Shown in pieces: positions 9,409-60,687 of a stretch of 64,000 nucleotides of DNA (position 1 is the stretch's first letter; every line of letters begins with the position of its first letter). The DNA comes from Candidatus Gottesmanbacteria bacterium RIFCSPLOWO2_01_FULL_42_22 (GTDB taxonomy: Bacteria > Patescibacteriota > Microgenomatia > 2-02-FULL-39-11). Where the stretch lies: the NCBI GenBank assembly GCA_001779315.1, contig MFJU01000042.1:747-64746 (forward strand), in the 5' to 3' direction. A program made the translations under genes and the position numbers. The notes beneath the pieces are model-generated. The model worked only from the letters and a program-made list of their open reading frames with translations. It was not told the DNA's origin and did not search any database.

Positions 9409-9429
9409 ATACCGGTCTTTTTGTCTTTT

Positions 9430-9468
9430 TAACCCCATCCCTTCTCAGTCTCAATTCTCCTATATACC
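9430..9468 (+). repeat. intergenic repeat copy I (left-end fragment only)
   Basis: AACCCCATCCCTTCTCAGTCTCAATTCTCC resembles the 5' end of copies B and F. Confidence 0.45.
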
Positions 9469-9514
9469 TTGTTGACATCATAGTGGACATACTATATGAT
9501 ATTTACATATAGAT

Positions 9515-36854: not shown

Positions 36855-37406
36855 ATGAACCCTGAGACAGTAACCGCTATTTTAGCAGTTCTGACTGTTA
36901 TGGGATTGGCAGCTGGGGTTTTTCTGGCTGCAATTTATCTGGCAATTAAACAGTCAAGGCACTGGCAAAAAGTCCTGAAAGGGGTAAATAAAATTTTATT
37001 GAAATATTCCTTCCATCTGGCTTTGATAGTGTCCCTGACGGCAACATTAGGCAGTTTGTATTATTCGGAAATTGCAGGATATGAACCCTGCAAATTGTGC
37101 TGGTATCAGAGAATATTAATGTACCCTCAAGTATTGCTGTTGTCAGTCTCTATTCTGAGACGGGAATTTTTCATCAAATGGCATCTGACGGGTTTGTCAA
37201 TCTTGGGAGCGGTAATTGCTGCATACCATTATTACCTTCAATGGGGCGGTAATCCGTTGGTACCCTGCTCGACTGTCGGTTATTCAGTTGACTGTGCCAA
37301 GACTTTTATTTTGGAATTCGGTTTTATCTCGATACCTTTTATGGCTTTGACAGCCTTTTTATTGATTACACTTTTAATGCTGTTTTCTCCTGATCAGTCC
37401 AGCTAA
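36855..37406 (+). CDS. disulfide bond formation protein B family (DsbB/BdbC-like)
   Basis: YEPCKLCWYQRILMYP with 4 TM helices and a second Cys pair C..C. Confidence 0.6.
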   Translation: MNPETVTAILAVLTVMGLAAGVFLAAIYLAIKQSRHWQKVLKGVNKILLKYSFHLALIVSLTATLGSLYYSEIAGYEPCKLCWYQRILMYPQVLLLSVSILRREFFIKWHLTGLSILGAVIAAYHYYLQWGGNPLVPCSTVGYSVDCAKTFILEFGFISIPFMALTAFLLITLLMLFSPDQSS

Positions 37407-37435: not shown

Positions 37436-37993
37436 TTATTGGGGATTTTCGGCCGCAGGTGTTGTTGCCGGTTGAGAAGAAGATGATTGAGAAACAGGCT
37501 GCTGATAGGGTGGTTGAACTACGGGAACTGAAGGTGTTGCTGCAGCAACCGGGATAGAGGCCGGGGCTGGAACTGCTGTTTCTGCCGACGGTACTGCAGG
37601 TTGGTTTTGCATTTCTTTCATTTGCTGAAAAAAAGCATCCACTTCCCTGACTATATCCAGAGGCGTGAATTGGGCTTTAATGAGATAGCCGTCCGCGCCT
37701 ATTTTAAAGGCTTCTTTGATAATATCTTCCTGGCCTAAATTGGTTATCAGAATAATCGGTGTATCTTTGGTAGGCGAAGTCGGAGCTCTCATCGCCCTTA
37801 AAACATCAATGCCGGTAACTTTGGGCAGCATAATATCCAGAAGAATAAGATCATAAATATGGCTGCCCAGTTTAACCAGGGCTTCCTGCCCGTCTGAAGC
37901 GGTTTCCACAGTATAATTGCCGGTTTTAATAAAAGTGGTGCGGTAGATTTCCTGGATATGGAAATCGTCTTCAACTAAAAGTATTGTTTTCAT
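37436..37993 (-). CDS. response regulator (receiver domain plus Pro/Ala/Gln-rich tail)
   Basis: ILLVEDD...DLILLDIMLPK..G; no DNA-binding domain. Confidence 0.7.
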   Translation of the reverse strand: MKTILLVEDDFHIQEIYRTTFIKTGNYTVETASDGQEALVKLGSHIYDLILLDIMLPKVTGIDVLRAMRAPTSPTKDTPIILITNLGQEDIIKEAFKIGADGYLIKAQFTPLDIVREVDAFFQQMKEMQNQPAVPSAETAVPAPASIPVAAATPSVPVVQPPYQQPVSQSSSSQPATTPAAENPQ

Positions 37994-38000
37994 ATTAATC

Positions 38001-39524
38001 TTAATTTGAACTGAACCTGCCGGCCATCCTCTGGGATAATCTCTCCGGATTAATCATAATCCCTTTTCCTGTTTTAGTTAATCCTCCAAATTGAGCCGCG
38101 CTTTGCGCCGTCTGGGCACTCGTGGCTACAGGCAGGGTAAAACTGAATGTTGATCCTTTGCCTACCTCGCTTTCAACGTTGATTTCTCCGCCGTGCATGG
38201 CAATGATGGATTTGGATATAAACAGACCTAAACCGGTTCCTTTTGATCCCTGTTCCAGAACGCTGGAAACACGGAAGAACTTGGTAAAGAGCTTCGATAA
38301 AGCTTCCTTGGGGATACCGATGCCGGTATCCTGTACAGAAACTGAGACTAAAGAACCTTGGGGGGTTACTGACACTTTTATTGATTCTCCGACCGGAGTA
38401 TAGGTTATGGCATTGGTTATCAGATTGGAAATAACCTGGTTAATGCGTGATGAATCAGCCATAACCATAGGTATTTTTTCAGCAGATTCGACAAAAGATA
38501 AATTTTGCCCTTTACTGTTTGCCTGATCAAGCAAATCAGTAACCGCATTTTTAACCAATGAAACCAAATCTAAAGATTGAGGTTCAATTTTATAAGAACC
38601 CCGCTCAATTCTGGAGACGTTAAGGAGATTATCAATTAAAGTTCCTAAATTGGCGGCATTAAATTCCAGGCGATGGAGGTGCTCCTGATGCTCCGGGGAT
38701 AATTTATCACCAAGCTCGGAATTTAACAATTCCGCGTATCCTCTAATAACCGTCAGCGGAGTTCTCAACTCATGGGCAGCCATGGAGACGAAATCCAATT
38801 TCATTTCTTCGAGAGCTTTTTGGTTGGTTTCATCGTAGAAAGTTAAAATAAAACCGTGATTTTCTTCATCGGTGAAGACAACGGACGTTACCGAGACGGC
38901 GATATGAAAAATTTTACCGTCCTGTGATCTTATCTGGAGGCCTCTTTCGCGGTGAATGGTAGCCAGTTCATCGGGTTTGGCGAGATAGTTGGATATAATA
39001 ATTTTTTCATCCCCGCCGTAAATATGGAGGATTTCGTCGATATGTTTGCCGACTACCATTTGGGCGGTAAAACCGGTAAATTTTTCGGAGGTCTTATTGA
39101 AAATAAGCACTTTACCGCCCTGGTCCAAGGCGATAACCGCCTCGGATAAAGCCTGCAGAAGAGTTTCCATTTTTTTCTCCTGTTTATTGAAATTTCCTTC
39201 CCTCTGCTGGATTTGTTCCGTGATCAGGGAAAAAGTATTTGTCAGATGTTCCAAATCATGGTCAGCCACACCGATGCCGGAATTAAACTGGTCTTTTTCC
39301 AGTTTTTCCAGGATGGCAGCCATTTTTTTGGCCCCTTGGGTGTAAAAGTAGGATATCAAATAAGTTGAAATCAGAATAAAAAGGCTTCCCACACCCCCGA
39401 CCAACAAGATAGTCGTGTCGGCACCGGCCGAAAGATATATTATCAGGGAAATTATGCCTAACAGAATAACCAGAATTAAGGATAAAAGAAAACTTTTGGC
39501 ACGGATAGCTAATTTCATAAACAA
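38001..39524 (-). CDS. sensor histidine kinase (TM, PAS, HisKA, HATPase)
   Basis: H-box HELRTPLTVIRGY; G-boxes; overlaps/abuts the response regulator gene. Confidence 0.8.
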   Translation of the reverse strand: MFMKLAIRAKSFLLSLILVILLGIISLIIYLSAGADTTILLVGGVGSLFILISTYLISYFYTQGAKKMAAILEKLEKDQFNSGIGVADHDLEHLTNTFSLITEQIQQREGNFNKQEKKMETLLQALSEAVIALDQGGKVLIFNKTSEKFTGFTAQMVVGKHIDEILHIYGGDEKIIISNYLAKPDELATIHRERGLQIRSQDGKIFHIAVSVTSVVFTDEENHGFILTFYDETNQKALEEMKLDFVSMAAHELRTPLTVIRGYAELLNSELGDKLSPEHQEHLHRLEFNAANLGTLIDNLLNVSRIERGSYKIEPQSLDLVSLVKNAVTDLLDQANSKGQNLSFVESAEKIPMVMADSSRINQVISNLITNAITYTPVGESIKVSVTPQGSLVSVSVQDTGIGIPKEALSKLFTKFFRVSSVLEQGSKGTGLGLFISKSIIAMHGGEINVESEVGKGSTFSFTLPVATSAQTAQSAAQFGGLTKTGKGIMINPERLSQRMAGRFSSN

Positions 39525-39612
39525 TCCCCCCGGAATATAGACGGTTCATAAATTAGCATAAGTCAAAACAGCATAATTTGTAAACATCCAATCCATCTGC
39601 TATCTTCTTCTT

Positions 39613-40092
39613 ATGAAGAAATTAAGGATAGGCTGGTTTTCCTTTTCCTGCTGTGAAGATTCGACCATTATTTTTACTGAACTTTTAAATGAGCATTTTG
39701 CCCAATGGCGCAAGCTCCTCGATATTAGAGCCATGCTGGTTTTACAGAAAAAAGAAGATATGACTTCACTGGATGTCGCCTTTGTCGAAGGGGCGGTAAC
39801 CTCCCGTGACCAGTCGGATAAATTGAAATTGATCAGAAACAGAGCCAAAAAACTGGTAGCCATCGGATCATGCGCCTGTATCGGCATGCCCTCAGCTCAG
39901 AGAAACCTTTTTAATGCGGAAACTAAAGCCGAGATTGAGGCTATATTGACCCGCTTTAAGTATTCGGAAAAAGTGCTGAAATTATCGGAAGTTGTCCCAA
40001 TCGATGACCAGGTGCCCGGCTGTCCCATGAATGAGAAAATTTTTCTGAATATTCTGGATAAATATTTAAAGGAATTTAAAATAGATGCATAA
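39613..40092 (+). CDS. [NiFe]-hydrogenase small subunit-like (NuoB-fold, proximal-cluster-only)
   Basis: SCCEDS, GSCACIG and PGCP cysteine motifs like NuoB/hydrogenase small subunits; 159 aa. Confidence 0.55.
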   Translation: MKKLRIGWFSFSCCEDSTIIFTELLNEHFAQWRKLLDIRAMLVLQKKEDMTSLDVAFVEGAVTSRDQSDKLKLIRNRAKKLVAIGSCACIGMPSAQRNLFNAETKAEIEAILTRFKYSEKVLKLSEVVPIDDQVPGCPMNEKIFLNILDKYLKEFKIDA

Positions 40093-41374
40093 TCTTGATT
40101 TGTCACTCTCCGATATCTCAAAGATTGAAGGCAAAGCCAGTTGTGATATCAAAATCCGCCATGGCAAAGTCGAGGACGTAAAATTTTCAATTAGCGAATT
40201 TAAACGTTTTTATACCCGGGCCATCAAAGGGAAGGACATAGTAGCGCTTCCCCAGCTGACCTGCCGGATCTGCGGTACCTGCTCCAATGCCCATTTGCTG
40301 TGTGCAATCAAAGCCTGCGAAAAAATTTTAGATATTCATGTTTCCGAGCAAACTGTGAAACTGCGGCGGCTTCTCAATTTCGGGCTTTTAATAAGAGACC
40401 ACGCTTTGCATTTATATATTTTTGTCATGCCGGATTTTTTCGGCCATGATTCGATTTTGGAATTTAAGGAAGATGACAGCCTGGAGCATAAATTTCTGCA
40501 CGATGCTTTCCAGGTAAAGGCGGTCGGCAATCATCTGAGCATTGCCGTTGGCGGCAGAAGTGTACACGCGCCTTATGCGGTGGTTGGCGGTTTCACCAGG
40601 TTACCAAACGGGGAAGAATTGAAAAAATGCAGCGATGAGCTGTCGGGTTTGAGAAACACGGTCATTGATCTGATCAAACTTTTTAAAGAAAAAGATAAAA
40701 CTTTAATTAGGCCCGATCTTCAATTTGCCGCGCTTTTGGATAGCGAATATTCATTTTTAGACGGAGAGATTTACCACTCAAAGGGCCGGGAAAGGGCTGG
40801 AAAATACGGGGATAATCTGGAATATGTTTCCATTCCTTATTCCCACGCTTCCGGCTTCAGGTTTAAAGGAAAAACCTATATGACAGGTGCTTTGGCCCGG
40901 CTGAATTTAGGCAAAGACAAGCTCCACCCCAAAACCCGCCAAAGCCTGAATTCAATTTTGGACCTCTTTCCCTCAAATAATATCTACCATAATAATTTGG
41001 CCCAAGCCATAGAGATTCTTCATTGTCTTGATTCGGCGGCTGATATTATTAAAAATTTTGTTATCAAAGAGGAGAAACCGCTACCCATAAACAGAAAGGC
41101 CGGGACAGGCGCGGGCGTCATCGAAGCACCGCGGGGTATTCTTTATTACCGTTTGTCAGTTGATGGTGGGGGAAAGGTTATAAAGGGTGAAATTGTCGTA
41201 CCAACCGGCCAAAATCAGATAGGCATAGAAGAATCAATCAGGCTTTACCTGGAAAACAATTTAACGAAATTTAAAGAAAAAGAAGATTTGGAAAAAGAAA
41301 TTGAATCAATTGTCCGCGCTTACGACCCCTGCATGAGCTGCGCTTCGCACTTTCTCAAAACCCGCTACAGCTGA
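40085..41374 (+). CDS. [NiFe]-hydrogenase large subunit
   Basis: N-terminal RICGTCSNAH (RxCGxCxxxH) and C-terminal DPCMSCASH (DPCxxCxxH) Ni-Fe ligating motifs. Confidence 0.75.
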   Translation: MHNLDLSLSDISKIEGKASCDIKIRHGKVEDVKFSISEFKRFYTRAIKGKDIVALPQLTCRICGTCSNAHLLCAIKACEKILDIHVSEQTVKLRRLLNFGLLIRDHALHLYIFVMPDFFGHDSILEFKEDDSLEHKFLHDAFQVKAVGNHLSIAVGGRSVHAPYAVVGGFTRLPNGEELKKCSDELSGLRNTVIDLIKLFKEKDKTLIRPDLQFAALLDSEYSFLDGEIYHSKGRERAGKYGDNLEYVSIPYSHASGFRFKGKTYMTGALARLNLGKDKLHPKTRQSLNSILDLFPSNNIYHNNLAQAIEILHCLDSAADIIKNFVIKEEKPLPINRKAGTGAGVIEAPRGILYYRLSVDGGGKVIKGEIVVPTGQNQIGIEESIRLYLENNLTKFKEKEDLEKEIESIVRAYDPCMSCASHFLKTRYS

Positions 41375-41742
41375 TTTTCCAGAATTTTACATATATAGGC
41401 CACCGCTTTTTTTTTAGATGTACGGACCGGCACTCCGATGATGAGAAAATCGTCCAGCTGTTTTAATTTTTTCCTCAAAGATAAATCCAGATAAAGGTCA
41501 TAATCATGAACAGATATTAAGGGAGAGGCGGCAAAAGCAGACAGAGAGTTAAAAACCGTGATTTTTTTAATCCCGAGAACCGTATCGATAAAAATCAATT
41601 TGCCTTTTGGGGAATTAAGTTCTTCCGCCGGATCGTATTTTTGAAAATTTAAATCAGGTAGTTTTTTCTTTAAAAGAGGCATGATTTCAGACGGAAGAGA
41701 GTCTTTTTTATCGGCCTCATTTCCCAGACAGAAGATAATCAT
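41365..41742 (-). CDS. putative hydrogenase maturation protease (HycI/HoxW-like)
   Basis: 125 aa; N-terminal IIFCLGNE and internal LIFIDTV resemble the endopeptidase family; context next to the large subunit. Confidence 0.4.
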   Translation of the reverse strand: MIIFCLGNEADKKDSLPSEIMPLLKKKLPDLNFQKYDPAEELNSPKGKLIFIDTVLGIKKITVFNSLSAFAASPLISVHDYDLYLDLSLRKKLKQLDDFLIIGVPVRTSKKKAVAYICKILENQL

Positions 41743-42494
41743 GTGTTTATCACATTCAAGGAATAGCGGGTATAATATTTCAGATCATTCAATTGCCTGA
41801 GTGAAAGTTTTTGGCAAAAATATCCCCAGTGGCAGGAAATATAATCTCCCTTTTTTAGATTATTCCTGAGAATGTCATCTTTGCCCTGGAAGATTACGGA
41901 TCTGATTATTTTTTTCTTGAAGCACATCTTTCCCTTACAAAATTCCAGTTTTTGGGATTCGATTTTAATCGATTGATTTCCGTCAAAACCCAGTATTTTC
42001 CCCCAATTAATTAGACAGGCATCCATTGTTTCCAGAGTGTGGGGAATATCAAGATGGCCGGTCCTGCGCCAGACAGCTAAGACGTGGAAGGAATGGTGGG
42101 GTAGGGGAATTTGCGGAAAAAAATTAAAAATACGTTTCAGCTGCCGAGGTTTCATTTTTTTCAGCATAAGCTTATCTTTTAAAAGATCAGCGAAATTGCG
42201 GGTTTTGACTTTTTCCAATAAGGCATTACCCAGCCAGTAGGCTTCAATAACCTGCCGGTCAAGCGGATTGCGGATATTGTTTTGATAGGCAATCAGGCAA
42301 AGATAAGGATAAAGGGTGGAAAAATTCTGCAGAATTTCCCCTGTACCTTTGTCAATGAGGGCAGTGGCAGAGTAATATGACAGCTCTTCATGTCTATCAG
42401 GCCCGCACAAAGAAAGGGAGTTCGGCGGATAAGCATAACGGCTGCAAAGAAAGACCCCGTCAGCGGTTAAGACTCGGTTGGTGGCGGAAAACAT
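41739..42494 (-). CDS. hypothetical protein
   Basis: 251-aa ORF, Cys-containing C-terminus; no family recognised. Confidence 0.3.
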   Translation of the reverse strand: MFSATNRVLTADGVFLCSRYAYPPNSLSLCGPDRHEELSYYSATALIDKGTGEILQNFSTLYPYLCLIAYQNNIRNPLDRQVIEAYWLGNALLEKVKTRNFADLLKDKLMLKKMKPRQLKRIFNFFPQIPLPHHSFHVLAVWRRTGHLDIPHTLETMDACLINWGKILGFDGNQSIKIESQKLEFCKGKMCFKKKIIRSVIFQGKDDILRNNLKKGDYISCHWGYFCQKLSLRQLNDLKYYTRYSLNVINT

Positions 42495-43341
42495 AGACCA
42501 AAAAAATACCGGAGAGTGAAAACAGCAGATTGTATATTTGGACCGTAGGGATAATTGATCCCGACCAAACCGTTTGAAGTAAATTGGTTACCGGTGTAGC
42601 CAAAATAAGGATGGCCGTTACCTGTATTGCCGGAGCGTATTTTAGCGCTGAAAAAAGAGAAAAGACATAGAGTGACAGCAGAATAATCGAGGGAAAAAGC
42701 GCTATTAAGACCGCCGGATCCAGGGAAAAAAGCAGTGCTAATTTTGTTTGCCAGGCGGCTATCCCAATCAGAAGAAGAGTGCCCATAAACATCCGGCTCC
42801 AGGCAACAGTCAGGCTGCCGGTTTTTTTCAATACTTTTTTGGCGATGATATACTCGCCTGACCAAAAAAGGGTAGCCAGAAGAATCAGTGCTTCGCCGCG
42901 GTTAAAATCGAATCCGGCAAAACCCAAAATGAAATTGGAAAGAGCGATCAGGACAAATCCGGCAACCTGGTAAAATCCGACTTTTTCTTTCAGAATGGGC
43001 ATGGCCATGAGGGTCACCCAAATAAACAGCGATTTATGGATTAAATTAGCATTGACGGCAGAGGCAGACTGTAAACCGCTAAAGTAAAGAATAAACGGCA
43101 GGCTGCCTCCAATGACTGCCAAAACCAATAGTTCTTTCCAGGATTTTTTAAAATCCGCCAAAGTCCGCGCCAGACCGCCGCCTTTAAAAATAAAGAGCGA
43201 TAAAATCATTGCTGTCCCTGCGTTTTTAACAATGTTGAGAATTAACGGATCAATACCCTTTATCAAAAGCTGTTTGTTGTAGAAAATGGAAACACCGGAG
43301 ATAAATGCAGTCAGAATAGCCAATTTTATGCCTTTGTTCAT
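42460..43341 (-). CDS. EamA/DMT-family transporter
   Basis: 10 predicted TM helices in two repeats. Confidence 0.55.
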   Translation of the reverse strand: MNKGIKLAILTAFISGVSIFYNKQLLIKGIDPLILNIVKNAGTAMILSLFIFKGGGLARTLADFKKSWKELLVLAVIGGSLPFILYFSGLQSASAVNANLIHKSLFIWVTLMAMPILKEKVGFYQVAGFVLIALSNFILGFAGFDFNRGEALILLATLFWSGEYIIAKKVLKKTGSLTVAWSRMFMGTLLLIGIAAWQTKLALLFSLDPAVLIALFPSIILLSLYVFSLFSALKYAPAIQVTAILILATPVTNLLQTVWSGSIIPTVQIYNLLFSLSGIFLVYVFRHQPSLNR

Positions 43342-43344
43342 ATT

Positions 43345-43545
43345 TTATGAAAGAGATTTTATTAATAAGCGGACTTTCAAGCCTTCCTGCCTGTTTAGCC
43401 TGGCGACCGCCGCGTCACCAATCACTTGAAGATATTCCCCTTTTTTTACGGATATATCACCGGTCAGGACAACCGTCTTTCCCCCTTCGATGACGGCCTT
43501 TTTGCCGGCTACTTTCAATACTTTAACGGGAATGGTAAAACACAT
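43345..43545 (-). CDS. hypC: hydrogenase assembly chaperone HypC/HupF
   Basis: MCFTIPVKV N-terminus (MC[LI]xxP motif); 66 aa. Confidence 0.65.
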   Translation of the reverse strand: MCFTIPVKVLKVAGKKAVIEGGKTVVLTGDISVKKGEYLQVIGDAAVARLNRQEGLKVRLLIKSLS

Positions 43546-43596
43546 ATTTGAATTGCAGTACTCCTAAATATATAATATCTCAATCTATAAATAAAT

Positions 43597-44028
43597 ATGG
43601 CACGTACAGCAAAAACAGTAGTTTATAACCGGATTGTCTTTGTATTCTCCCTGATAGGGTTAGTTATCGCCGCTTATGTCACGCAAAGTTTTTTGCGGCA
43701 AACCTCGATTGTCTGTCTGAATTCCGGCTGCGAGATTGTCCGCAAAAGCCCCATGAGTTACCCATTGGGTATTCCGGTTCCGGCAGTGGGTTTGGCCGGT
43801 TATGCTTTTCTGTCTGTTCTGGCTTTTTTAAGAACAACGTCATCTAAACGAAATTTAATTCCGCTGATTTTGGGCATGTCGGCCTTTGGCGTGGTTTTTG
43901 TCAGTTGGTTTACTTATACGGAACTCTTTGTGATAAAAGCTATCTGTACCTGGTGTGCTGTTTCAGCCGTCAATATGCTGGTAATCTTTACAATTTCATT
44001 ATTAATGTACAAGGAGGCTAAAAAATGA
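43597..44028 (+). CDS. vitamin K epoxide reductase (VKOR) family protein
   Basis: CxxC (CLNSGC) and CTWC active-site pairs in a 4-TM scaffold. Confidence 0.65.
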   Translation: MARTAKTVVYNRIVFVFSLIGLVIAAYVTQSFLRQTSIVCLNSGCEIVRKSPMSYPLGIPVPAVGLAGYAFLSVLAFLRTTSSKRNLIPLILGMSAFGVVFVSWFTYTELFVIKAICTWCAVSAVNMLVIFTISLLMYKEAKK

Positions 44029-44648
44029 ACTTAACAGGGGAAAGCAAATTTTTTATCGGAATTATTCTTGCGACAGTTGCCATAATTATCGGCGGCGTCT
44101 TTTTCATGTCCAAACCGGAAAAGCTTTTGGAAAAAAGCGAGTTAATCCCTGCCGGCAGCCAAATTAAAGGAAATTCAGAAGCCTCAGATTATCTGGTCGA
44201 GTTTTCAGATTTCCAGTGTCCGGCCTGCGGTGCTTTTTATCCCCAGGTAAAATCTTTAGTTAATGCCAATAAGGATAAATTATCCTTAAGTTACCGGCAT
44301 TTCCCTCTTGATCAGCACAAAATGGCCGTCCCTGCCGCCCTGGCAGCCGAAGCGGCCGCCGAACAGGGCAAGTTTTGGGAAATGCATGACTATATTTTCG
44401 AAAACCAGGCCGGACTTTCCGAGGAAATGCTTCTTTCAGCCGGCGAAAAACTGGGCCTGGACAAAGCCAAATACGAGGAGGCTTACAAAAATAAAAAGTA
44501 TCAGGAAAAAGTTTCCAAGGACCTGGCCGACGGTAAGCGTTTCAGCGTCAATGCCACCCCGACCTTTTTCCTGAACGGCAAAAAACTGAATCCGGTCAAC
44601 TTTGACGACCTCAAACGCTCTGTCGAAGAGGAATTGAAGAAGAATTAA
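44025..44648 (+). CDS. DsbA-like thioredoxin-fold oxidoreductase
   Basis: FSDFQCPACGAFYP CxxC motif; N-terminal TM; translationally coupled to VKOR. Confidence 0.65.
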   Translation: MNLTGESKFFIGIILATVAIIIGGVFFMSKPEKLLEKSELIPAGSQIKGNSEASDYLVEFSDFQCPACGAFYPQVKSLVNANKDKLSLSYRHFPLDQHKMAVPAALAAEAAAEQGKFWEMHDYIFENQAGLSEEMLLSAGEKLGLDKAKYEEAYKNKKYQEKVSKDLADGKRFSVNATPTFFLNGKKLNPVNFDDLKRSVEEELKKN

Positions 44649-51080: not shown

Positions 51081-51340
51081 AGATTGTTTTATCTCCTAGG
51101 ACGGAAAAACAGCTCAGAAATCTACCGAAATTTGACCAGATAGCTATAGCAGAGAAAATCCGCAATTTGCCTCAAAGTCAACAGTCAGGGGAAGAAAAAC
51201 TGTCCGGTTTCCCCGGCATCTACAGGGTAAGGGTAGGAAATTACCGAATTGTTTATAAAAAGCTGGCTGATTCTTTCTATATTGTTATAATTCGTCATCG
51301 ACGGGATGTCTACCGCTTAGTCAAAGATTTATTGGGCTAG
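51077..51340 (+). CDS. RelE/ParE-family toxin
   Basis: 87 aa; IYRVRVGNYRIVYKKLADSFYIVIIRHRRDVY; overlaps the antitoxin stop. Confidence 0.7.
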   Translation: MKIVLSPRTEKQLRNLPKFDQIAIAEKIRNLPQSQQSGEEKLSGFPGIYRVRVGNYRIVYKKLADSFYIVIIRHRRDVYRLVKDLLG

Positions 51341-52598
51341 CATACAGATCTTCCAGTTCCTTGACCCCGCCGAAGGCGATGCGGTCAAGAACAAGATCAT
51401 CCATGCCGAGCATTAAAGCAGGGGTAATGACAAATTCGCCGAAACGGTTATTGATTTTGTCGGCGGCATCGGTGACGTCCCTGTTTTTGCTTTTTTCTGT
51501 CCGGAAAAGCTCCTCCTGGACAAATTTTTTCTCGAAGAGTTTAAAACAGCTGACGGCCAGTTTAGCCACTTTTTTCGAAGGATGCGTTTGGTTGTTAAAG
51601 ACCAGCATGACCTTTTTGAACAGTTCTCCCGTGGTATACATTTCGGTCGCAAAAGTTTCCCCCCGGTGCCAATGGGTGTAGTCGGTATAGATAACGGCAA
51701 CATGGATGCCCAAAGCTGTATAACCGTGGCGGCGCAATCTTCGGCCCATTTTTTCCGTCAGTTTCATTAACAACCGGGCCAGCTCTCTTTTATCAGAGGT
51801 GAATTTGCCCAAGGCATAGGACTGTCCGAAGCTTTTGCGCTCAAACTCAATCGCATCAATCTCCCAGCCGCGCAATCTCAAATACCAGTAATGGCCGACA
51901 ATGCTCTGGAAAACCTCTTTGATAAGAAGTTCGCGTGAAGCTTTCAAAAAATCCAAAGGAGTAAAAATGTCCCGGGCGTTGAGTCTGGCCTGAAAGCGCG
52001 TATTGATGCCGCAAAGATCAATCAAAGTTACCCTGTCATAAACTTCCTCCAGGTTTTGCCAGTTGATCGTCTGAAGCCCGTCCGGCTTTTTTAAAGAAGC
52101 CGCCAGTTTGGCCAGAAAGCGGTTGGTGGAGATGCCGACTGAAACGCTAATCCACTCGCCGATTTCCCGTTTAATCCGTTTTTTTATTTCACTGCCGACA
52201 TCCTCAAGGCTTTTATTTTTTATTTGGCAGCCGCTAAAATCCAGGACTGCCTCGTCAATAGATTTGGGAAAAACGTCGGGTGAATATTCCTTGAAGATCC
52301 GGCTGAATTTCAAATGAACATCCCTGTATTTGGGAGGATCAGGCGGCCGCACGATTATTTGAGGACAAAGAAGTCGGGCTTCCCGCACCGTCATGCCGAC
52401 CCTAACCCCGTACCTTTTAGCTTCAATTGAGGGAGCGATGACACAGCCGTTGCCGGTGGTGTAGGCAGCTACAGCTACCGGTTTGCCGCGCAGCAGTGGA
52501 TTGGCCTGCTGTTCGGCGGTGGCAAAACAGGAGTTCATGTCAATATGCATGACCAGGGGCAAGTTGCGGTTAAGAGGCAAGTCCATCGCTGACCTCAT
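51321..52598 (-). CDS. Y-family DNA polymerase (DinB/UmuC-like)
   Basis: MHIDMNSCFATAEQQANPLLRGKPVAV N-terminal catalytic motif. Start placed at Met 52598 or 52586; the track's 52724 start overlaps the upstream ORF. Confidence 0.8.
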   Translation of the reverse strand: MRSAMDLPLNRNLPLVMHIDMNSCFATAEQQANPLLRGKPVAVAAYTTGNGCVIAPSIEAKRYGVRVGMTVREARLLCPQIIVRPPDPPKYRDVHLKFSRIFKEYSPDVFPKSIDEAVLDFSGCQIKNKSLEDVGSEIKKRIKREIGEWISVSVGISTNRFLAKLAASLKKPDGLQTINWQNLEEVYDRVTLIDLCGINTRFQARLNARDIFTPLDFLKASRELLIKEVFQSIVGHYWYLRLRGWEIDAIEFERKSFGQSYALGKFTSDKRELARLLMKLTEKMGRRLRRHGYTALGIHVAVIYTDYTHWHRGETFATEMYTTGELFKKVMLVFNNQTHPSKKVAKLAVSCFKLFEKKFVQEELFRTEKSKNRDVTDAADKINNRFGEFVITPALMLGMDDLVLDRIAFGGVKELEDLYASPINL

Positions 52599-52842
52599 CA
52601 AGTCTCCAAAAAAGAGTTTCCGTATCCAGTTCAAGCCGGAAAGCCAGCGAATTGTTGGAGACTGAGAAAATATGGAGAAGTTTTTTGCCCTGTTTGACTT
52701 TGTGGTGGTAGCCGATCTTGTCAATTATGTAGATGCGGCCCTGCCATTTGATTTTTTGGGGCATGACCGTCCTTTTTTCCCGGTCAAAAACCGTCACCAC
52801 GCTGATTTTTTCGTTGATTTTTTCGTTCATAAAATCGCTCAA
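52570..52842 (-). CDS. small protein between lexA and the Y-family polymerase (possible polymerase accessory, YolD-like?)
   Basis: 90-aa ORF in operon position; no confident family. Confidence 0.3.
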   Translation of the reverse strand: MSDFMNEKINEKISVVTVFDREKRTVMPQKIKWQGRIYIIDKIGYHHKVKQGKKLLHIFSVSNNSLAFRLELDTETLFWRLDEVSDGLAS

Positions 52843-52860
52843 AATGACACGTAACTCTTT

Positions 52861-53433
52861 TCAGTGATATTTCCGGATGACCGAGATGACAATGCCGAAA
52901 ATGATGAGATTTTCTTTCGGATACAGGGGTTTGTATTTGCTGTTGCCTGCTGAGAGAAAAACGAGATTATCTTTTTTGCGGAAATACTTGAGAGTGAATT
53001 CATCATCAATTGCCGCCACCACGATATCGCCCTCTTTAGGTTGGCGGCCCTTTTCCACAATCACCATATCGCCTTCGTGGATGCCGGCCTCAATCATCGA
53101 ATCCCCTGAAACCCTAAGAAGATATGATCTTTCGGGGCGGGCAATCAGATAGTCATCAAAGGAAACGGCAGACAGAAGCTGCTCTTCGGCGGCTGTCGGA
53201 CTGCCGGCGCGGATAATACCTAAAACAGGCAGGGAGGGAAAAAGCTGTTTCGGCATAAGTTTGCCGGTAGAGTCCTTCCCCAATATGCCGGCTTCGATGA
53301 GTTTGGCCGCCAATTTAAAACTGGCTCCCTTGGAAGAGAAACCGAAAAGACGGCACATTTCCTGATAAGAGGGGAGACGCTTGTTTTTGCGGAAAAAGCG
53401 GCGGATTTTCTGTACAGCAGACTCAAGATTCAT
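52861..53433 (-). CDS. lexA: LexA repressor
   Basis: N-terminal wHTH; S24 peptidase motifs VSGDSM and GDIVVAAIDDEFTLK; perfect GAAC-N4-GTTC box upstream. Confidence 0.8.
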   Translation of the reverse strand: MNLESAVQKIRRFFRKNKRLPSYQEMCRLFGFSSKGASFKLAAKLIEAGILGKDSTGKLMPKQLFPSLPVLGIIRAGSPTAAEEQLLSAVSFDDYLIARPERSYLLRVSGDSMIEAGIHEGDMVIVEKGRQPKEGDIVVAAIDDEFTLKYFRKKDNLVFLSAGNSKYKPLYPKENLIIFGIVISVIRKYH

Positions 53434-55112: not shown

Positions 55113-55577
55113 TTATCTGGTTACAGAAATATCAACGGCTGGTATTTCGGTAAAAGGCGCCGAGACTGTTACCCTATTATCTGCTGTTTGCACAACCTGA
55201 TATCCGGTGTTATAGGCTGATCCTACCGTACAGTCTGTAATATTGTTTCCTCCAAGAGATGGATCTGGATCTTGTGGAAGAGCAGCAATATAGCGGGTGA
55301 TCAGATCCGTGCAAATATTGGCACCGGCTTCACTGATATTTTGGGCAGTGCCTGTAATACCAACTGGTAGAGCTCCCTTGTTATCTGCTGCATACTGATG
55401 GATGGCGTTTAAAATAGTATTAACATCACTGGCTCTTTTTGTGTCATTCGCCTGGGAGAATTGCCTGGCCGGATTAATGGCGATTAAGGTGATAGCCAAA
55501 AGCGTGGCCAGAATTCCGATAACAACCAGGAGTTCGATTAAGGTAAAACCCCGGTTGCGGGCAGAGAATTTTTTCAA
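55113..55577 (-). CDS. type IV pilin (PilA-like)
   Basis: Prepilin leader and GFTLIELLVVIGI N-terminal helix. Confidence 0.7.
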   Translation of the reverse strand: MKKFSARNRGFTLIELLVVIGILATLLAITLIAINPARQFSQANDTKRASDVNTILNAIHQYAADNKGALPVGITGTAQNISEAGANICTDLITRYIAALPQDPDPSLGGNNITDCTVGSAYNTGYQVVQTADNRVTVSAPFTEIPAVDISVTR

Positions 55578-55675
55578 AATTAATCACCCCCCTTCGCCCC
55601 GATTTAATCGGGGCAAATCCTTCTATTTCCAGGCTACTATGGATTTGAGCTTGTTGTCAAGATGAATTAGCAATT

Positions 55676-56359
55676 TTATCCGGCTGACTGACGGTAGAGC
55701 ATAAAAAGCAGAAAGGAAAAAAGCAGGACAAAGACACCCAGAAGGAGGTAAACCCGGTTTAAACCCATGACCTTTTTTTCCGGTTCTTTCGGTTTGTGTG
55801 CTTCCTCTGCCAAACCGGCGATCATAGTCTGCTCTTTGAGGTAATCAGTTTTGGCCAATAAAAAACCGACGGACGGTGCATCTAAAGTCGTAAGATTCAT
55901 GCCGGTTACAGAAGACGGAATGACTGTAAAAACGGTAAAACCGCGATTTTTGAAAGTTTCCATAAATACCTGCAGAAAATCAATATTGGCGGCCGATAGC
56001 AAAAACCCTTTTTCCAGTTTGTAAATCTTATGAACATTATTTTCGAAAGGCAGATGATAAAGGAAATCTTCGATGATATTTTTCTGAAGATCCTCTTTCT
56101 CTTCGCTGAAATTTTTTTCAAAGGTAATCTGGGGGGATAAAATAAAGATGAGCCTGGCCGGAGGCAGTTTGTGGTAATTGATAAAAAGCTTCAATTGCAT
56201 TTCCAGCTCTTTACTGTTGACAATTTCCATAAACCTAACCAGTTTGTCCGGGTAATTATAGACGGCTATTTGGTTGTTTACCGAGTTAAAATAAACGAGT
56301 TTGTCTCTGTCCAAAAAAACAACGGCTAAATTTTGAAGGCTTTTCATATCAGGGAACAT
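55676..56359 (-). CDS. hypothetical pilus-associated protein with C-terminal TM anchor
   Basis: Position in the pilus operon; one TM helix. Confidence 0.3.
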   Translation of the reverse strand: MFPDMKSLQNLAVVFLDRDKLVYFNSVNNQIAVYNYPDKLVRFMEIVNSKELEMQLKLFINYHKLPPARLIFILSPQITFEKNFSEEKEDLQKNIIEDFLYHLPFENNVHKIYKLEKGFLLSAANIDFLQVFMETFKNRGFTVFTVIPSSVTGMNLTTLDAPSVGFLLAKTDYLKEQTMIAGLAEEAHKPKEPEKKVMGLNRVYLLLGVFVLLFSFLLFMLYRQSAG

Positions 56360-56729
56360 CCTTCCAAGAGATTAGGCTGATTATATTATTATTCAAATTA
56401 AGATTTACCTCCACCCTTTTTTTCTTATTGCCGTAGTTGGCTTGGGCTGAAACAGTCTTGTCGGTTAATCCTGTAACGGTGATTTGGCAGTTTCCCTCAT
56501 TGATATCCAGTGATTCTCCCGAATAGGCAGGATTGCGGATAAGGCGGATAATGGCATTTTCAATACAGGAATCGGCAATGGATTTGGCACTGTCACCTGA
56601 AATTAATAAAGTCGATGAGGCAGAACCCAGAATCATTAAAGATACGGCCGCCGTGATAACGGTGACAGCCAAAACCATCAGAAACATTAATATTACCAGA
56701 GCGAATCCGCCCGAATTATTTTTTTTCAT
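56349..56729 (-). CDS. pseudopilin-like protein
   Basis: N-terminal hydrophobic helix GFALVILMFLMVLAV. Confidence 0.4.
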   Translation of the reverse strand: MKKNNSGGFALVILMFLMVLAVTVITAAVSLMILGSASSTLLISGDSAKSIADSCIENAIIRLIRNPAYSGESLDINEGNCQITVTGLTDKTVSAQANYGNKKKRVEVNLNLNNNIISLISWKDVP

Positions 56730-57211
56730 CTTAAAGATGCGGTTAAAGCGTAATTTGCAGTTCTCGCCTCTCCCGCTTCCAAAATCAGACTTTGCAATTC
56801 AAATTCTATTTTGACAGCCGGTTTTCCCGTAATATTGCCGATTCTTCTGACTGTAAAACTGTTTAAAGCCGTACCATAGCCGTTTAATTTTCCGCTGACA
56901 ATACCATTATTATAGAAAAGATTGGATCCTGAAAGGAAAAAATCGTGTGTCTGGCCTGCCTGTTCGAGAGAAATATCGGATGCGACATCTCCGGGATTAG
57001 CCGGAACTTGGATATTATCGGCCTGATATATTTCATTGGTCAGTTTTTTAATAATAAACATGGCGTCCTGGGAGCTTAAAGAGGTGGAAGCCGATTCTTT
57101 TTGCAGATCAAGAACTGAGGCGATCAGCTGAGCGACAATAATCAGAAAGGAAAAAAGCAGAAAACCATAGAGAATTGTTTCGATTAAGGTTGAGCCTTTA
57201 TTGAATTTCAT
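56726..57211 (-). CDS. minor pilin/pseudopilin
   Basis: STLIETILYGFLLFSFLII prepilin-like N-terminus. Confidence 0.5.
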   Translation of the reverse strand: MKFNKGSTLIETILYGFLLFSFLIIVAQLIASVLDLQKESASTSLSSQDAMFIIKKLTNEIYQADNIQVPANPGDVASDISLEQAGQTHDFFLSGSNLFYNNGIVSGKLNGYGTALNSFTVRRIGNITGKPAVKIEFELQSLILEAGEARTANYALTASLR

Positions 57212-59133
57212 GGTGAATAATTGACGGAAACATCATATAACACCGGACTGAAAGATGAATCCGCTGATGTCAGTTCGGCCTTGTAGCGAAAACACCTGCC
57301 GGGATTAACATATGGTAGATTTATAATCAATGGTATGGGACCGGCCGCGCTAAAATAAGTATCAGCCGCTCCGTCTGGTCCGACGTATGAATATTGCGCT
57401 TCCGAACAGTTATTATTGACAGCTTCTGAAGAAGCTACCTGGAGAGCGAGACTGGTTTGGGTAGGCCGGTCAAAATTAAAGTCAAAGCGGTTGAAAGCAA
57501 CGGTTTGGCCGGCATCAAACGGCGCAGATTCAAAAGTTCCCTGTGAGGAATACTCACCGCCGGGTCCGCCGGCAATTATTTTAAGTTCGGAAGTTGAATC
57601 ACCGGTGATGATATAAGAATAGGCATCCCCGTCCGTTTCCAGAACGGAGAAGACTCCGTTGATACCTGAATCAATATTTAAACCGCCGCATCTGGACAGA
57701 GGAGGATTAACCGATTCACTCGAAATATTAATAACCTGATATTCTTCGCCTCCGGTTCCGACCAAGATAGCCCTGTTTCCGGGAACAACGGTAATACCCT
57801 GCGGATTCATACCGTTGGCTTCATAAACTGCCACAACCTGCCTTTGCCCGCTTTTATTTTCAATATCAAGAACAAACAACTCAAACTTGTTAGATGATGC
57901 TTCCGTAGCCAAATATGCCCGGGTGGCTGAAGAATTGACAAAAATGTCTTTGCCGTCGTCAGCATTCAAATTTGCCCAACCGACGATGTTTAAAGTTTGG
58001 CCCCCGTTTGTAACCTCAATAATTTGCATCTGGGTTGTCTCGGATTCCACGGCCACATAAGCATAATTACCCAAAACGATAACCTGTTCACCTTTTCCGG
58101 CTAAAGCAACAGAGCCTAATTTCAGTCTGGAGCCTGTTTTTAAGTCTAAATTAAACGTATACAGGGTGTTGCCGGCAGTGGCAAAACCGATATTGCCCGA
58201 TGTAAAAACACTTTCTCCGTCTGTAATCCCCGGAGCATCAAAAAAACCGACCTCGGCAAATTTTCCGTTAACCTGGTTATTTAAATCCATAATGACAATT
58301 TCTTTACTGTTGGTGTCTGTAGCTATGTAAGCATAATTTTCTTCACCAAAGACATCATTGGTTTTATAGCCGTCAAATGTCCCGTTAATCGTGCCCGAAG
58401 GCGATGAGGGTGGAGGCGGATTGCTGATATCAACCCGGGCAAAAGACACCCCCGAAGCATTATTGCCGGTACCGGCCACGACCTGACCTTCGATGGCGGA
58501 CACGGCGTTGGCGACACCGTTTTTGGGTAAATCGACAGCTTCGATAGAAAGATTGGGATCACACCAGCTGGATATACCGCCTGAACCGAGCATAATTTCT
58601 CCTCCTAAATCAGCAGAAATAACCGTACCCGTCAGGCTGCCTTTCTCAAAATCAGCCACCGAAGTTTCCGTATGTGATCCGTTATTAAGGAATCTTGTTA
58701 AATACCATGTTTGGGAAATATTGCCCGAGTGAGGCAAAGACCAGCTGACGTCAACCGTTATTTTTTTCGTCGAAGGATCGCTAGTGCCGCTTGCAGATAA
58801 TACGCCTGCGCTATCCCTGAGAGCGTCTTCAATGGTAAGTGCCCTGGTAAAGCCGTTGATTGTTTCGGGACCGCTGTTTAAAACAAAGCTGTTAGCGGAG
58901 ACGGCCGGATGATAGCTGCCGTTTACTTCGATTTCATGCCAATTGCGCTCCCTTATCATTCTGACTGCTTCTTCCGCTTCCCGAGTCAGGGAAAAAGCAT
59001 TTAACCTTTGGGCGAGCATGCTTCGGCCGTCTCTTCCGGCTATAATCCCGGAAAAAAGGGCGGGAAAGAGAATAGCCATTAAAGTCACAGCTACTAAAAG
59101 TTCAATAATCGACTGGCCTTGGGTTTTCAGCAT
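57208..59133 (-). CDS. large minor pilin / pilus tip adhesin-like protein (641 aa)
   Basis: Prepilin-like QSIIELLVAVTLMAIL N-terminus followed by a large repeat-rich domain. Confidence 0.5.
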   Translation of the reverse strand: MLKTQGQSIIELLVAVTLMAILFPALFSGIIAGRDGRSMLAQRLNAFSLTREAEEAVRMIRERNWHEIEVNGSYHPAVSANSFVLNSGPETINGFTRALTIEDALRDSAGVLSASGTSDPSTKKITVDVSWSLPHSGNISQTWYLTRFLNNGSHTETSVADFEKGSLTGTVISADLGGEIMLGSGGISSWCDPNLSIEAVDLPKNGVANAVSAIEGQVVAGTGNNASGVSFARVDISNPPPPSSPSGTINGTFDGYKTNDVFGEENYAYIATDTNSKEIVIMDLNNQVNGKFAEVGFFDAPGITDGESVFTSGNIGFATAGNTLYTFNLDLKTGSRLKLGSVALAGKGEQVIVLGNYAYVAVESETTQMQIIEVTNGGQTLNIVGWANLNADDGKDIFVNSSATRAYLATEASSNKFELFVLDIENKSGQRQVVAVYEANGMNPQGITVVPGNRAILVGTGGEEYQVINISSESVNPPLSRCGGLNIDSGINGVFSVLETDGDAYSYIITGDSTSELKIIAGGPGGEYSSQGTFESAPFDAGQTVAFNRFDFNFDRPTQTSLALQVASSEAVNNNCSEAQYSYVGPDGAADTYFSAAGPIPLIINLPYVNPGRCFRYKAELTSADSSFSPVLYDVSVNYSP

Positions 59134-59134
59134 C

Positions 59135-59629
59135 TTAATTTACGGATATAACCGCCCCCCAGGCATTCAATGTCAGAGTTTGTCTGTCATTGGTAATGCT
59201 GTTTGATAAAGAAAGCGTATTTTGTCCGGAATCATAAGCGGTCACTTCACCTGTCAGGGCAGAAAAAACTACGGACTGTTGGGGCAGATTTACATTATCG
59301 AACGTCAAATTATCATTTAAATTAACCGTAATGTTTGAAGGTGATGCGTCAGAATAAGACGTCCCTGAAAAAAGGGTATAAGAATTCGGGGAAAAATAAA
59401 TTCCATATGCGGAAGATATACCTTCGCTTGTTTGCCCTGCCAATGCTTTTAGCTGCTGATTTTTGATATCCGAAACCAGTGTCGTCATTTGGGTTGTCAG
59501 AGATGAATGTTCCGGGGTTTGGGAAATATTGACGGACAAAATTGCATATAAAACCAGGAGAATTGCCATGACGATAACCAGCTCTATGAGGGTAAATCCT
59601 TTTTGATGCGGGAAAGGTTTTTTTTTCAT
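59135..59629 (-). CDS. pilin/pseudopilin
   Basis: KGFTLIELVIVMAILLVL prepilin N-terminus. Confidence 0.55.
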   Translation of the reverse strand: MKKKPFPHQKGFTLIELVIVMAILLVLYAILSVNISQTPEHSSLTTQMTTLVSDIKNQQLKALAGQTSEGISSAYGIYFSPNSYTLFSGTSYSDASPSNITVNLNDNLTFDNVNLPQQSVVFSALTGEVTAYDSGQNTLSLSNSITNDRQTLTLNAWGAVISVN

Positions 59630-59634
59630 TAAAA

Positions 59635-60687
59635 TTATCTGACGCCTACCTGGCCGATAAGACCGTAAATAGGAGCAATAATGGCCATCATCATACCTCC
59701 GACCAGAACGCCGACAACCAAAAGCATGACAGGTTCGAGAAGTGCGGTGAACATTCTCAATGAATTGGAGACCTGGTAGTCCATATATTCGGAGATATCC
59801 TGCATGGATTTTTCCAAAGCTCCGCTTTTTTCACCAACCTCCATCAGTTTAACCATGATTGAAGGAATAACCCCTTTTGATTCTTTAAAACCTTCCGATA
59901 ATTTTTGTCCGGAAGCCACCATTTCTGCCGAATTACTGATGACTTTGTAAGTATCCCGGCTGATGACCACATCCTTTGACAGATCAAGAGCGTTAATGAT
60001 CGGTACACCGGCATGAAGAAGCAGGGAAAAACTTCTGGAAAATCTGGTCAGGTCGATTTCCCTGACCAGATTGGAGATGATGGGAAGATGATAGAGAGGA
60101 GAGAGGATTGTTTGGCGGTGTTTTTTGAAAAGATAAATGACGATAACAGCCAGCCCCGTCAAAACAGCTAACAGTGCCAAGGTATTATTAACTACCAAAT
60201 CAGAGAGTCTAATCAATATTTTGGTCGGCAAAGGCAAATCCATGCGTAATCTTAAAAAAACGGAAGAGATTTTGGGCACGACGACAACCAGCATCAAAAG
60301 AAGCACTCCGGCAAAAACCAGGCCGATTAAAAAAGGATAAATCATGGCAGATTTCACTTTATCTGAAAATTCCATCTCTTTCTGGATATTTTTTTTCAGA
60401 TCATGAAGAGTAGTTTCCAGCGTTCCGGCTTCCTCAGAAGCTTTAAGCAAATTAACGGTCACTTTGTCAAAAACCAGCGGAAACCTGGTAAATGACTGGT
60501 AAAGATGGTTTCCCTGGATGATGTCTTCCCTGACAATTTCCAGAAATTTTTTATGCTTGCCACGGGCATCCTCCAAAAGAGCGTCAATTGCTTCCAGAAT
60601 GGATATGCCGGCAGTGAGCATGGTAGACAGATTTTGGATAAAGGAAATCTTCTCACCGTTTGACAAGCTGATAGAAGATGATTTCAT
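59635..60687 (-). CDS. pilC: type IV pilus assembly platform protein PilC (GspF family)
   Basis: Two T2SSF repeats, 3-4 TM helices. Confidence 0.8.
   Translation of the reverse strand: MKSSSISLSNGEKISFIQNLSTMLTAGISILEAIDALLEDARGKHKKFLEIVREDIIQGNHLYQSFTRFPLVFDKVTVNLLKASEEAGTLETTLHDLKKNIQKEMEFSDKVKSAMIYPFLIGLVFAGVLLLMLVVVVPKISSVFLRLRMDLPLPTKILIRLSDLVVNNTLALLAVLTGLAVIVIYLFKKHRQTILSPLYHLPIISNLVREIDLTRFSRSFSLLLHAGVPIINALDLSKDVVISRDTYKVISNSAEMVASGQKLSEGFKESKGVIPSIMVKLMEVGEKSGALEKSMQDISEYMDYQVSNSLRMFTALLEPVMLLVVGVLVGGMMMAIIAPIYGLIGQVGVR

Follow-up and report, generated by a model that had tools for sequence, protein, structure and literature searches.

A probable hyd2-type [NiFe]-hydrogenase with a truncated small subunit and a conserved set of accessory genes in a Gottesmanbacteria contig

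The window analysed here, a 64-kb stretch of contig MFJU01000042.1 from Candidatus Gottesmanbacteria bacterium RIFCSPLOWO2_01_FULL_42_22, contains at positions 39613–43545 the genes for a [NiFe]-hydrogenase, together with four accessory genes. Gottesmanbacteria belong to the Microgenomates/Patescibacteria group, i.e. to the Candidate Phyla Radiation (CPR), and the locus very probably encodes a hydrogenase of the hyd2 type with dedicated maturation genes. The hyd2 clade of CPR [NiFe]-hydrogenases has been described by Jaffe et al. (2020, BMC Biol 18:69, PMC7304191); the hydrogenase itself is thus already known in kind and the core finding is not new. Taken as a whole, the account developed below, of a cytoplasmic, heterodimeric hydrogenase derived from group 3b, linked to ferredoxin and served by a maturation and metal-supply operon, appears to us moderately probable.

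The interval is made up of six closely packed genes in two convergent transcription units, with the two hydrogenase subunits on the plus strand and the four accessory genes on the minus strand:

39613–40092, plus strand: hyd2 small subunit, 159 residues (PF01058, 65.5 bits)
40085–41374, plus strand: [NiFe]-hydrogenase large subunit, 429 residues (PF00374, 90.6 bits, cut-off 25.8)
41365–41742, minus strand: miniature maturation endopeptidase of the HybD/HycI fold, 125 residues (no Pfam match)
41739–42494, minus strand: DUF6390 protein, 251 residues (PF19927, 174 bits over the full length, cut-off 25)
42460–43341, minus strand: membrane transporter of the EamA/DMT family, 293 residues (PF00892, 100.8 bits)
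43345–43545, minus strand: short chaperone of the HypC family, 66 residues, starting with MCFTIP (PF01455, 24.4 bits, cut-off 28.5)

The 3' end of the small-subunit gene overlaps the start of the large-subunit gene by 8 nt, and the protease gene converges on the latter, their 3' ends overlapping by 10 nt. On the minus strand, transcription runs from the short hypC gene through the EamA and DUF6390 genes to that of the 125-residue protein; the 3' end of the EamA gene overlaps the start of the DUF6390 gene by 35 nt. An Rfam scan of the window gave no matches, and a scan of 39300–43800 for promoters and terminators did not rise above shuffled sequences (14 against 9.0 ± 3.0; terminators 1 against 5.8) and was not used. 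The genes named in a preliminary description of this DNA are all present where it had placed them. That description had spoken of a two-gene module, overlooking the DUF6390 and EamA genes inside the interval; six genes recur together in CPR- and DPANN-labelled loci.

The hydrogenase subunits and the six-gene module

Both Ni-Fe motifs of the large subunit are intact: RICGTCSNAH at residues 61–70 and DPCMSCASH at residues 414–422. The protein aligns end to end with the alpha subunit of sulfhydrogenase I (SHI) of Pyrococcus furiosus (PDB entry 9nez_D) with 208 bits and an E-value of 1.8e-60, placing the two motifs on RICSFCSAAH and DPCISCSVH, respectively. In 25 relatives of the large subunit, down to 56% identity, both motifs are invariant, as are the N-terminal Glu15-Gly16 and the APRG element. 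A genuine [NiFe]-hydrogenase with two complete motifs, as described earlier, is therefore present. The subunit ranks with the models of group 3b (257.8 bits for ShyA and 218.8 for HydA, against 125.5 for VhuA and 93.9 for FrhA), and the scores of the subunits lie far under the NCBIfam equivalog cut-offs (258 against 700 and 48 against 460). With HoxH (PDB entry 5xf9_D) it scores 97.6 bits. The chain ends seven residues past the histidine of the DPCxxCxxH motif, with the tail FLKTRYS, the length of which is conserved in the relatives; short carboxy-terminal tails are characteristic of group 3b. A protein annotated as 'hypothetical protein' in Candidatus Gottesmanbacteria bacterium RIFCSPLOWO2_02_FULL_42 matches the large subunit with 100% identity.

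The best NCBIfam matches of the small subunit are ShyD and HydD, of which it covers only the N-terminal 144–154 positions, the models being 240–261 residues long. It aligns solely to residues 1–151 of the 261-residue SHI delta subunit, so that the part bearing the medial and distal clusters is absent. Its relatives, 77 in number, measure 158–198 residues, with a median of 167. In all of these, Cys13, Cys87 and Cys137 are invariant; Cys14 is conserved in 92%, being a serine in loci L006, L008 and L011, while Glu15 and Asp16 are each conserved in at least 90%. Residues 13–16, encoded at 39649–39660, lie in the N-terminal motif SCCEDS, and Asp16 aligns with the second cysteine of the CxxC of SHI delta. 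From its sequence, the small subunit is predicted to hold a single site for a proximal Fe-S cluster, formed by Cys13, Cys87, Cys137 and either Cys14 or Asp16. Because Cys14 is replaced by serine in some relatives and Asp16 is conserved, the fourth ligand may be either an aspartate or the second of two tandem cysteines. By the same sequence criteria, the protein is a truncated delta-type subunit of group 3b.

The one-cluster small subunit of the preliminary description is borne out by the presence of only three to four conserved cysteines and by the end of the alignment in SHI delta. The N-terminal motif that it had given as CC..E is in fact SCCEDS. Its comparison with NuoB has to be abandoned: the NuoB model TIGR01957 scores 16 bits (E-value 0.008) against a cut-off of 142.7 and matches only residues 120–145. 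The possibility that the locus is a decayed relic was also considered, and is excluded by the strict conservation of the catalytic motifs and by the dedicated maturation genes across CPR- and DPANN-labelled loci.

For the analysis of gene neighbourhoods, 80 genome loci were fetched, each with a gene for a relative of the large subunit (48–80% identity). Many CPR lineages are represented, and some loci bear the labels Woesearchaeota, Nanoarchaeia, Aenigmatarchaeota or Micrarchaeota. Several of the labels given to third-party annotation (TPA) metagenome-assembled genomes (MAGs) are probably unreliable, such as 'uncultured Gammaproteobacteria', 'Methanosarcinales', 'Oscillospiraceae' and 'Bdellovibrionales' on contigs that bear the module (L005–L084). 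Hidden Markov models made from the six window proteins were used for a census of those 53 loci that had flanks of 4 kb or more on each side, with the following result:

Small subunit: 53 of 53 loci
125-residue protease: 52 of 53 loci
DUF6390 protein: 43 of 53 loci
EamA transporter: 38 of 53 loci
Short HypC: 25 of 53 loci (short open reading frames are easily missed)
All six genes: 21 of 53 loci

The small and large subunits, the protease, DUF6390, EamA and the short HypC form a conserved module in CPR- and DPANN-labelled loci. Other gene orders or orientations are present in L003, L007 (all six co-directional), L055, L056 and L063 (accessory genes upstream), and that the genes recur in such varied arrangements speaks for a functional link and not for synteny by descent. 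EamA and DUF6390 are, in two loci, fused into a single open reading frame, with DUF6390 at the carboxy-terminal end: L023 (11726–13405, 559 residues, a Parcubacteria-group MAG) and L031 (11642–13333, 563 residues, a Kerfeldbacteria MAG).

The module of the window is flanked by genes for DsbB, VKOR and DsbA-like proteins of extracytoplasmic disulfide formation (36855–37406, 43597–44028 and 44025–44648). VKOR and DsbA are syntenic with the module in 7–9 loci, mostly from Gottesmanbacteria, which probably reflects synteny within the lineage.

Accessory proteins and cofactor assembly

The minus-strand operon would serve the hydrogenase as a dedicated set of maturation and metal-supply genes. Its last gene encodes the 125-residue protein, the structure of which was predicted, drawing on eight database homologues, with a predicted local distance difference test (pLDDT) score of 87.5. 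Structure comparison shows that the predicted model has the HybD/HycI fold, in agreement with the maturation endopeptidase that the preliminary description had reported nearby. Gly7, Asn8, Asp14, Asp53, His79 and Asp80 are invariant in 22 relatives. Of these, Asp14, Asp53 and His79 sit, in this order, in the elements GN..D, IDT and HD, an order which we take to fit the acidic-acidic-His metal site of HybD and HycI. Two results speak against the assignment: the protein has no match in Pfam, and its alignment by hhalign with E. coli HycI alone failed (1.4%). To sequence methods alone, the relationship is scarcely visible: PF01750 is matched weakly by eight of the 22 relatives, at best with an E-value of 0.004, and a search of PDB sequences with the profile of the protein returned nothing. 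By analogy with its fold relatives, the protease would trim the seven-residue tail of the large subunit after metal insertion.

The short HypC is the product of the first gene of the operon. It aligns with canonical HypC by hhalign with a probability of 98.7% and an E-value of 2e-16, confirming the HypC-like gene noted earlier. Cys2 is kept, and there is no histidine at the position aligned to His51 (E. coli numbering).

The predicted model of DUF6390 (pLDDT 83.4) consists of a helical N-terminal domain, a beta barrel (residues 163–230) and a carboxy-terminal helix. In terms of domains, an orphan N-terminal domain (residues ~10–157) is followed by a HypC-like oligonucleotide/oligosaccharide-binding (OB) barrel with its helix (residues ~158–250). 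Cys30, His134, His137, Cys160 and His222 are invariant and Cys227 nearly so. The carboxy-terminal 95 residues match the canonical HypC profile (hhalign, 95% probability, E-value 4e-8), with the invariant Cys160 aligned to Cys2 and the invariant His222 to His51 of HypC. The top three Foldseek matches in the PDB are HypC chains from HypCD and HypCDE structures, with E-values of 0.02–0.03 that are not significant alone. The DUF6390 profile, when compared with PDB sequences, gave only a non-significant match to HypC (E-value 0.18), which acquired meaning through the later hhalign comparison of the domain. The N-terminal domain contains the invariant motifs PPNxLxLCGP, AYWxGN and PHHxFHV; no relative of it was detected in the PDB, and it has no similarity to HypA, HypB, HypD, HypE or HypF.

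DUF6390 is not restricted to the CPR: an exhaustive profile search yielded 1,236 cluster representatives with E-values of at most 0.001. Non-CPR forms occur fused to N-terminal DNA-binding domains of the GntR, PadR, ArsR or XRE families. Such helix-turn-helix (HTH) fusions are found in L086 (1468–2499), L088 (1346–2455), L089 (10001–10972) and L090 (4413–5516), and every one that could be placed adjoins a transporter, near genes for [NiFe]-hydrogenase, HycI, HypA or HypC. The transporters are a NikA-type ATP-binding cassette (ABC) system with SBP_bac_5, an Fbp-type ABC system, or a major facilitator superfamily (MFS) protein with NicO. A metagenome scan seeded with DUF6390 members of high GC content yielded a further set of 80 loci, with a GC content of 0.59–0.73. 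In 24 of them, canonical HypC is encoded directly upstream of DUF6390. Recurrent neighbours are HypA, HycI, a 434-residue large subunit, a gamma-subunit-like protein, NifU, DUF6084 and DUF5947, and also EamA (directly upstream in eight loci), an Fbp-type ABC system and an MFS transporter. When only the 33 contigs of at least 5 kb are counted, hydrogenase or maturation genes are present in 28 and a transporter in 20. Gene order and fusions thus tie DUF6390 to hydrogenase maturation genes and transporters in several phyla. The searched literature contains no mention of DUF6390, and the DUF6390/EamA pair, with its apparent link to hydrogenase maturation, is the part of the module that we did not find described.

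We read these contexts as pointing to a domain, partly derived from HypC and working with a transporter, that is linked to hydrogenases and binds or senses a metal, either nickel or iron. In the window, EamA would be coupled to DUF6390, which probably binds or senses nickel or iron for cofactor assembly. Two observations detract from this. EamA conserves only Asn40, Lys103, Glu119, Glu163, Lys168 and Arg183, with no conserved histidine or cysteine, which is not the typical signature of a metal transporter; and the transporters beside DUF6390 span several families with differing presumed substrates, 'nickel or iron' being read from gene context. We regard metal handling by DUF6390 and EamA as plausible, if slightly on the doubtful side. 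Our fuller proposal is tentative, and we would not expect all of it to hold: DUF6390 would be an undescribed maturation factor, with a metal-binding domain derived from HypC and rich in Cys and His, that couples a transporter (EamA in CPR and DPANN organisms; ABC, MFS or NicO elsewhere) to cofactor assembly, the HTH fusions would be metal sensors regulating transporters, and the DUF6390, EamA, short HypC and miniature protease of the CPR would constitute a streamlined maturation branch for a minimal, ferredoxin-coupled hydrogenase. If DUF6390 does handle nickel or iron for the cofactor, the maturation pathway, so far described in terms of HypA to HypF, would gain a further component.

Searches with phmmer and tblastn, using E. 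coli and CPR queries, found no HypA, HypB, HypD, HypE or HypF in the window, as had been described. HypD, HypE and HypF are required for the synthesis of Fe(CN)2CO in all studied systems, and the fact that they were not found in the window counts against the account given here. Literature searches on hyp genes in the CPR returned nothing relevant. Of the 80 hyd2 loci, only L030, L045 and L058 have HypD, HypE and HypF adjoining the hydrogenase, while L080 has a long HypC; in the fetched DNA, these loci are without DUF6390 and EamA. In L012 and L013, HypA and HypB follow directly after the module. The canonical Hyp genes (HypC/D/E/F or HypA/HypB) span 16–3725 in L030, 2630–7523 in L058, 11865–13187 in L045, 13465–14452 in L012 and 12540–13480 in L013.

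A distribution in which HypD/E/F loci are devoid of DUF6390 and EamA, and in which none of the 43 well-flanked loci containing DUF6390 has HypD, HypE or HypF nearby, would be expected if DUF6390, EamA and the short HypC replaced HypD/E/F as an alternative route to Fe(CN)2CO in reduced genomes. We consider such a replacement improbable. DUF6390 coexists with HypA and HypB in L012 and L013, its N-terminal domain is unlike HypD, HypE or HypF, no gene of the module points to ATP-dependent cyanide synthesis, and gene order cannot establish that HypD/E/F are absent from an entire genome. Furthermore, in the high-GC contigs DUF6390 directly follows canonical HypC and HypA, and a role as an additional factor is therefore favoured over one as a replacement.

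Electron transfer and candidate partners

The large subunit is expected to carry a standard Ni-Fe site, and the small subunit would be reduced to a flavodoxin-like domain with only the proximal Fe-S cluster. With neither built-in medial and distal clusters nor beta and gamma subunits encoded in the window, electrons would pass directly between the proximal cluster and a separately encoded carrier. No diaphorase, no beta- or gamma-type subunit and no membrane or ferredoxin-like partner is present among the scanned open reading frames of the window, which agrees with the preliminary description. The latter had left the electron partner as an open question; the question is real but not new, having already been stated for the hyd2 clade in the literature.

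When all neighbours of the 80 loci were clustered into families, two recurred after the six module genes. The first is a flavoprotein of 411–433 residues (for example, 414) with Pyr_redox_2 and Reductase_C domains, of the ferredoxin- or rubredoxin-reductase type. Its cluster includes a form of about 305 residues that resembles thioredoxin reductase (TrxR), and both forms together occur near hyd2 in 22 loci. The second is a single-cluster ferredoxin of about 93 residues (Fer4_15/Fer4_13, with the pattern CxxAxxC...CP), found near hyd2 in 17 loci. The flavoprotein gene is located directly upstream of the small-subunit gene and on the same strand in nine loci, in most of which a ferredoxin gene precedes it; in L074, the ferredoxin gene at 7929–8210 is followed by the flavoprotein gene at 8225–9469. 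Genes for the alpha and beta subunits of 2-oxoacid:ferredoxin oxidoreductase (POR) lie near hyd2 in eight loci and that for ADP-forming acetyl-CoA synthetase in five. Together, these gene contexts of the relatives suggest a ferredoxin-centred fermentative module composed of POR, acetyl-CoA synthetase, hydrogenase and flavoprotein.

Applied to the window, the carrier would be a small ferredoxin, as proposed from the relatives. POR would feed this ferredoxin, yielding reduced ferredoxin and acetyl-CoA, from which the acetyl-CoA synthetase would yield ATP; additionally or alternatively, the ferredoxin-reductase-type flavoprotein would tie ferredoxin to NAD(P)H. The enzyme would release or consume H2 and so keep fermentation in balance, the direction of catalysis being part of the proposal. 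Several results weigh against this reading. The 64-kb window contains no ferredoxin, ferredoxin reductase or POR gene; in the closest relatives (at least 54% identity in the large subunit), too, the hydrogenase has none of the partner genes nearby, and all loci that have partner genes share at most 53% large-subunit identity with the window. Naming a partner for this organism therefore means extrapolating from the more distant loci. In addition, the searched literature contains no reports of hyd2 enzyme activity. We give ferredoxin about an even chance of being the electron partner in this organism.

The flavoprotein could also act by itself. A separate ferredoxin-reductase- or TrxR-like protein would then dock on the small subunit in place of beta and gamma and couple the hydrogenase to NAD(P)H, possibly with a disulfide acceptor of the thioredoxin type. 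Apart from the 22 loci with a Pyr_redox_2 protein, this is suggested by the presence of the ~305-residue flavoprotein within the clusters of L004, L055 and L056. Moreover, in L064 (8544–9995, a MAG labelled Aenigmatarchaeota), one open reading frame of 483 residues joins a TrxR-like Pyr_redox_2 protein, which has a CVSC motif, to the small subunit (Oxidored_q6); this in-frame fusion may be a Rosetta-stone hint of a flavoprotein partner. The fusion was seen once, in one MAG, the surroundings of the hydrogenase contain no gene of this kind either in the window or in the most closely related Gottesmanbacteria loci, and the ferredoxin that accompanies the flavoprotein in 17 loci suggests a carrier between flavoprotein and hydrogenase. 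Direct coupling to NAD(P)H thus seems rather unlikely.

The flavodoxin gene at 53381/53516–53992, about 12 kb from the hydrogenase, had been named as a candidate partner. Its product belongs to the Flavodoxin_1 family (80 bits), and in L008 a homologue is encoded about 6.7 kb from the hydrogenase. This is the only other locus, among about 82, in which a neighbouring homologue was found, and the clustering of neighbours yielded no recurrent flavodoxin family. In the window, the gene adjoins those for LexA and a cytidylate-kinase-like protein in a separate transcription unit. Its near-absence from hyd2 neighbourhoods led us to reject flavodoxin as leading candidate, and we consider a role as partner very unlikely.

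Divergent from the small-subunit gene are two genes for signalling proteins:

38001–39524, minus strand: PAS histidine kinase, 507 residues, divergent and 88 bp upstream of the small-subunit gene
37436–37993, minus strand: receiver-only response regulator with a Pro/Ser-rich tail, 185 residues

Their position, which recurs in L010 and L008, the closest loci (that of the regulator also in L006), allows for a regulatory, H2-sensing hydrogenase that signals via this kinase and regulator, by analogy with HoxBC and HoxJ. No other hyd2 locus has the kinase, the large subunit is like group 3b and not group 2b, and the relatives lie in fermentation gene clusters. Regulatory hydrogenases are not known to have a carboxy-terminal extension or to need a protease, whereas here the seven-residue tail and the protease gene are both conserved. 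The group-3b-like large subunit, the conserved tail and protease and the restriction of the kinase to the closest loci make an H2 sensor very improbable, and this reading was rejected as unlikely.

The ferredoxin-linked enzyme preferred here bears on how a one-cluster [NiFe]-hydrogenase exchanges electrons, for which the candidates named by the neighbourhoods of the relatives are a single-cluster ferredoxin, a ferredoxin:NAD(P)+ reductase and, joined to the small subunit in one chain, a TrxR-like protein. In ecological terms, the result lends support to fermentation linked to H2 among CPR and DPANN organisms.

Three other features of the window, at 51321–53433, 55113–62369 and 16876–18087 and all on the minus strand, show no connection with the hydrogenase: a pair of genes for LexA (S24 peptidase) and a Y-family polymerase, an operon for type IV pili (PilB-like ATPase, PilC-like platform protein, prepilins and an LVIVD-repeat protein), and a gene for an RTX-repeat protein. 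The GC content is 0.35–0.37 in the first 10 kb, 0.42–0.45 at 12–18 kb and about 0.40–0.43 around the hydrogenase, differences that possibly represent compositional heterogeneity along the window.

Comparison with known systems

The best-scoring solved or curated relatives of both subunits are the group 3b enzymes, i.e. SHI and SHII of P. furiosus and Hyh of Thermococcus kodakarensis. These are alpha-beta-gamma-delta tetramers with a three-cluster delta subunit and with beta and gamma encoded in the operon, whereas here the delta subunit ends after the proximal-cluster domain and beta and gamma are absent from the window open reading frames scanned. A 2024 paper on CPR enzymes of group 3b concerns the four-subunit form.

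The small subunit also resembles HoxY of group 3d (PDB entry 5xf9_C, 189 residues; E-value 3.2e-8) and the S subunit of the NiFe-hydrogenase in PDB entry 7t2r (chain E, 179 residues; E-value 1.6e-5). Both of these contain the proximal cluster only and pass electrons to another protein, the diaphorase or bifurcating partner subunits being encoded in the same operon. Unlike in these enzymes, no partner is encoded alongside the window hydrogenase. With NuoB and the group 4 enzymes, the small subunit shares the single [4Fe-4S] site, and the tandem cysteines resemble the ligands of NuoB cluster N2. It differs in that the locus has no membrane module, that Cys14 is a serine in some relatives and that Asp16 takes the place of the second CxxC cysteine in the alignment with SHI delta.

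Among the maturation proteins, DUF6390 differs from HypC in that its HypC-like cysteine is not N-terminal but internal, following a 155-residue orphan domain, while the short HypC differs in its lack of His51. The protease falls short of the solved members of the HybD/HycI family by about 30 residues and escapes their Pfam model.

The closest likeness is to hyd2 as set out in the section of PMC7304191 devoted to it. There, the small subunit is consistently truncated, with a mean of 164 residues, and encoded beside the large subunit; proximal beta and gamma genes on the same strand are lacking, a hypC-like family is present in the neighbourhood, and a PF07992 family and an Fe-S family adjoin some hyd2 genes. 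The authors of PMC7304191 state that the function of hyd2 'remains uncertain', and later discussion of it was not encountered in the searched literature. The window locus shares the CPR host, a small subunit of similar length (159 residues), the absence of adjacent beta and gamma genes and the hypC-like neighbour. It thus fits hyd2 in host, in the length and position of the small subunit and in neighbouring genes, the features compared, and all of its close homologues share the architecture. To the content of that section, the loci described here add the conserved protease, DUF6390 and EamA, the occurrence in DPANN-labelled loci, and the neighbourhoods with ferredoxin, POR and ADP-forming acetyl-CoA synthetase.

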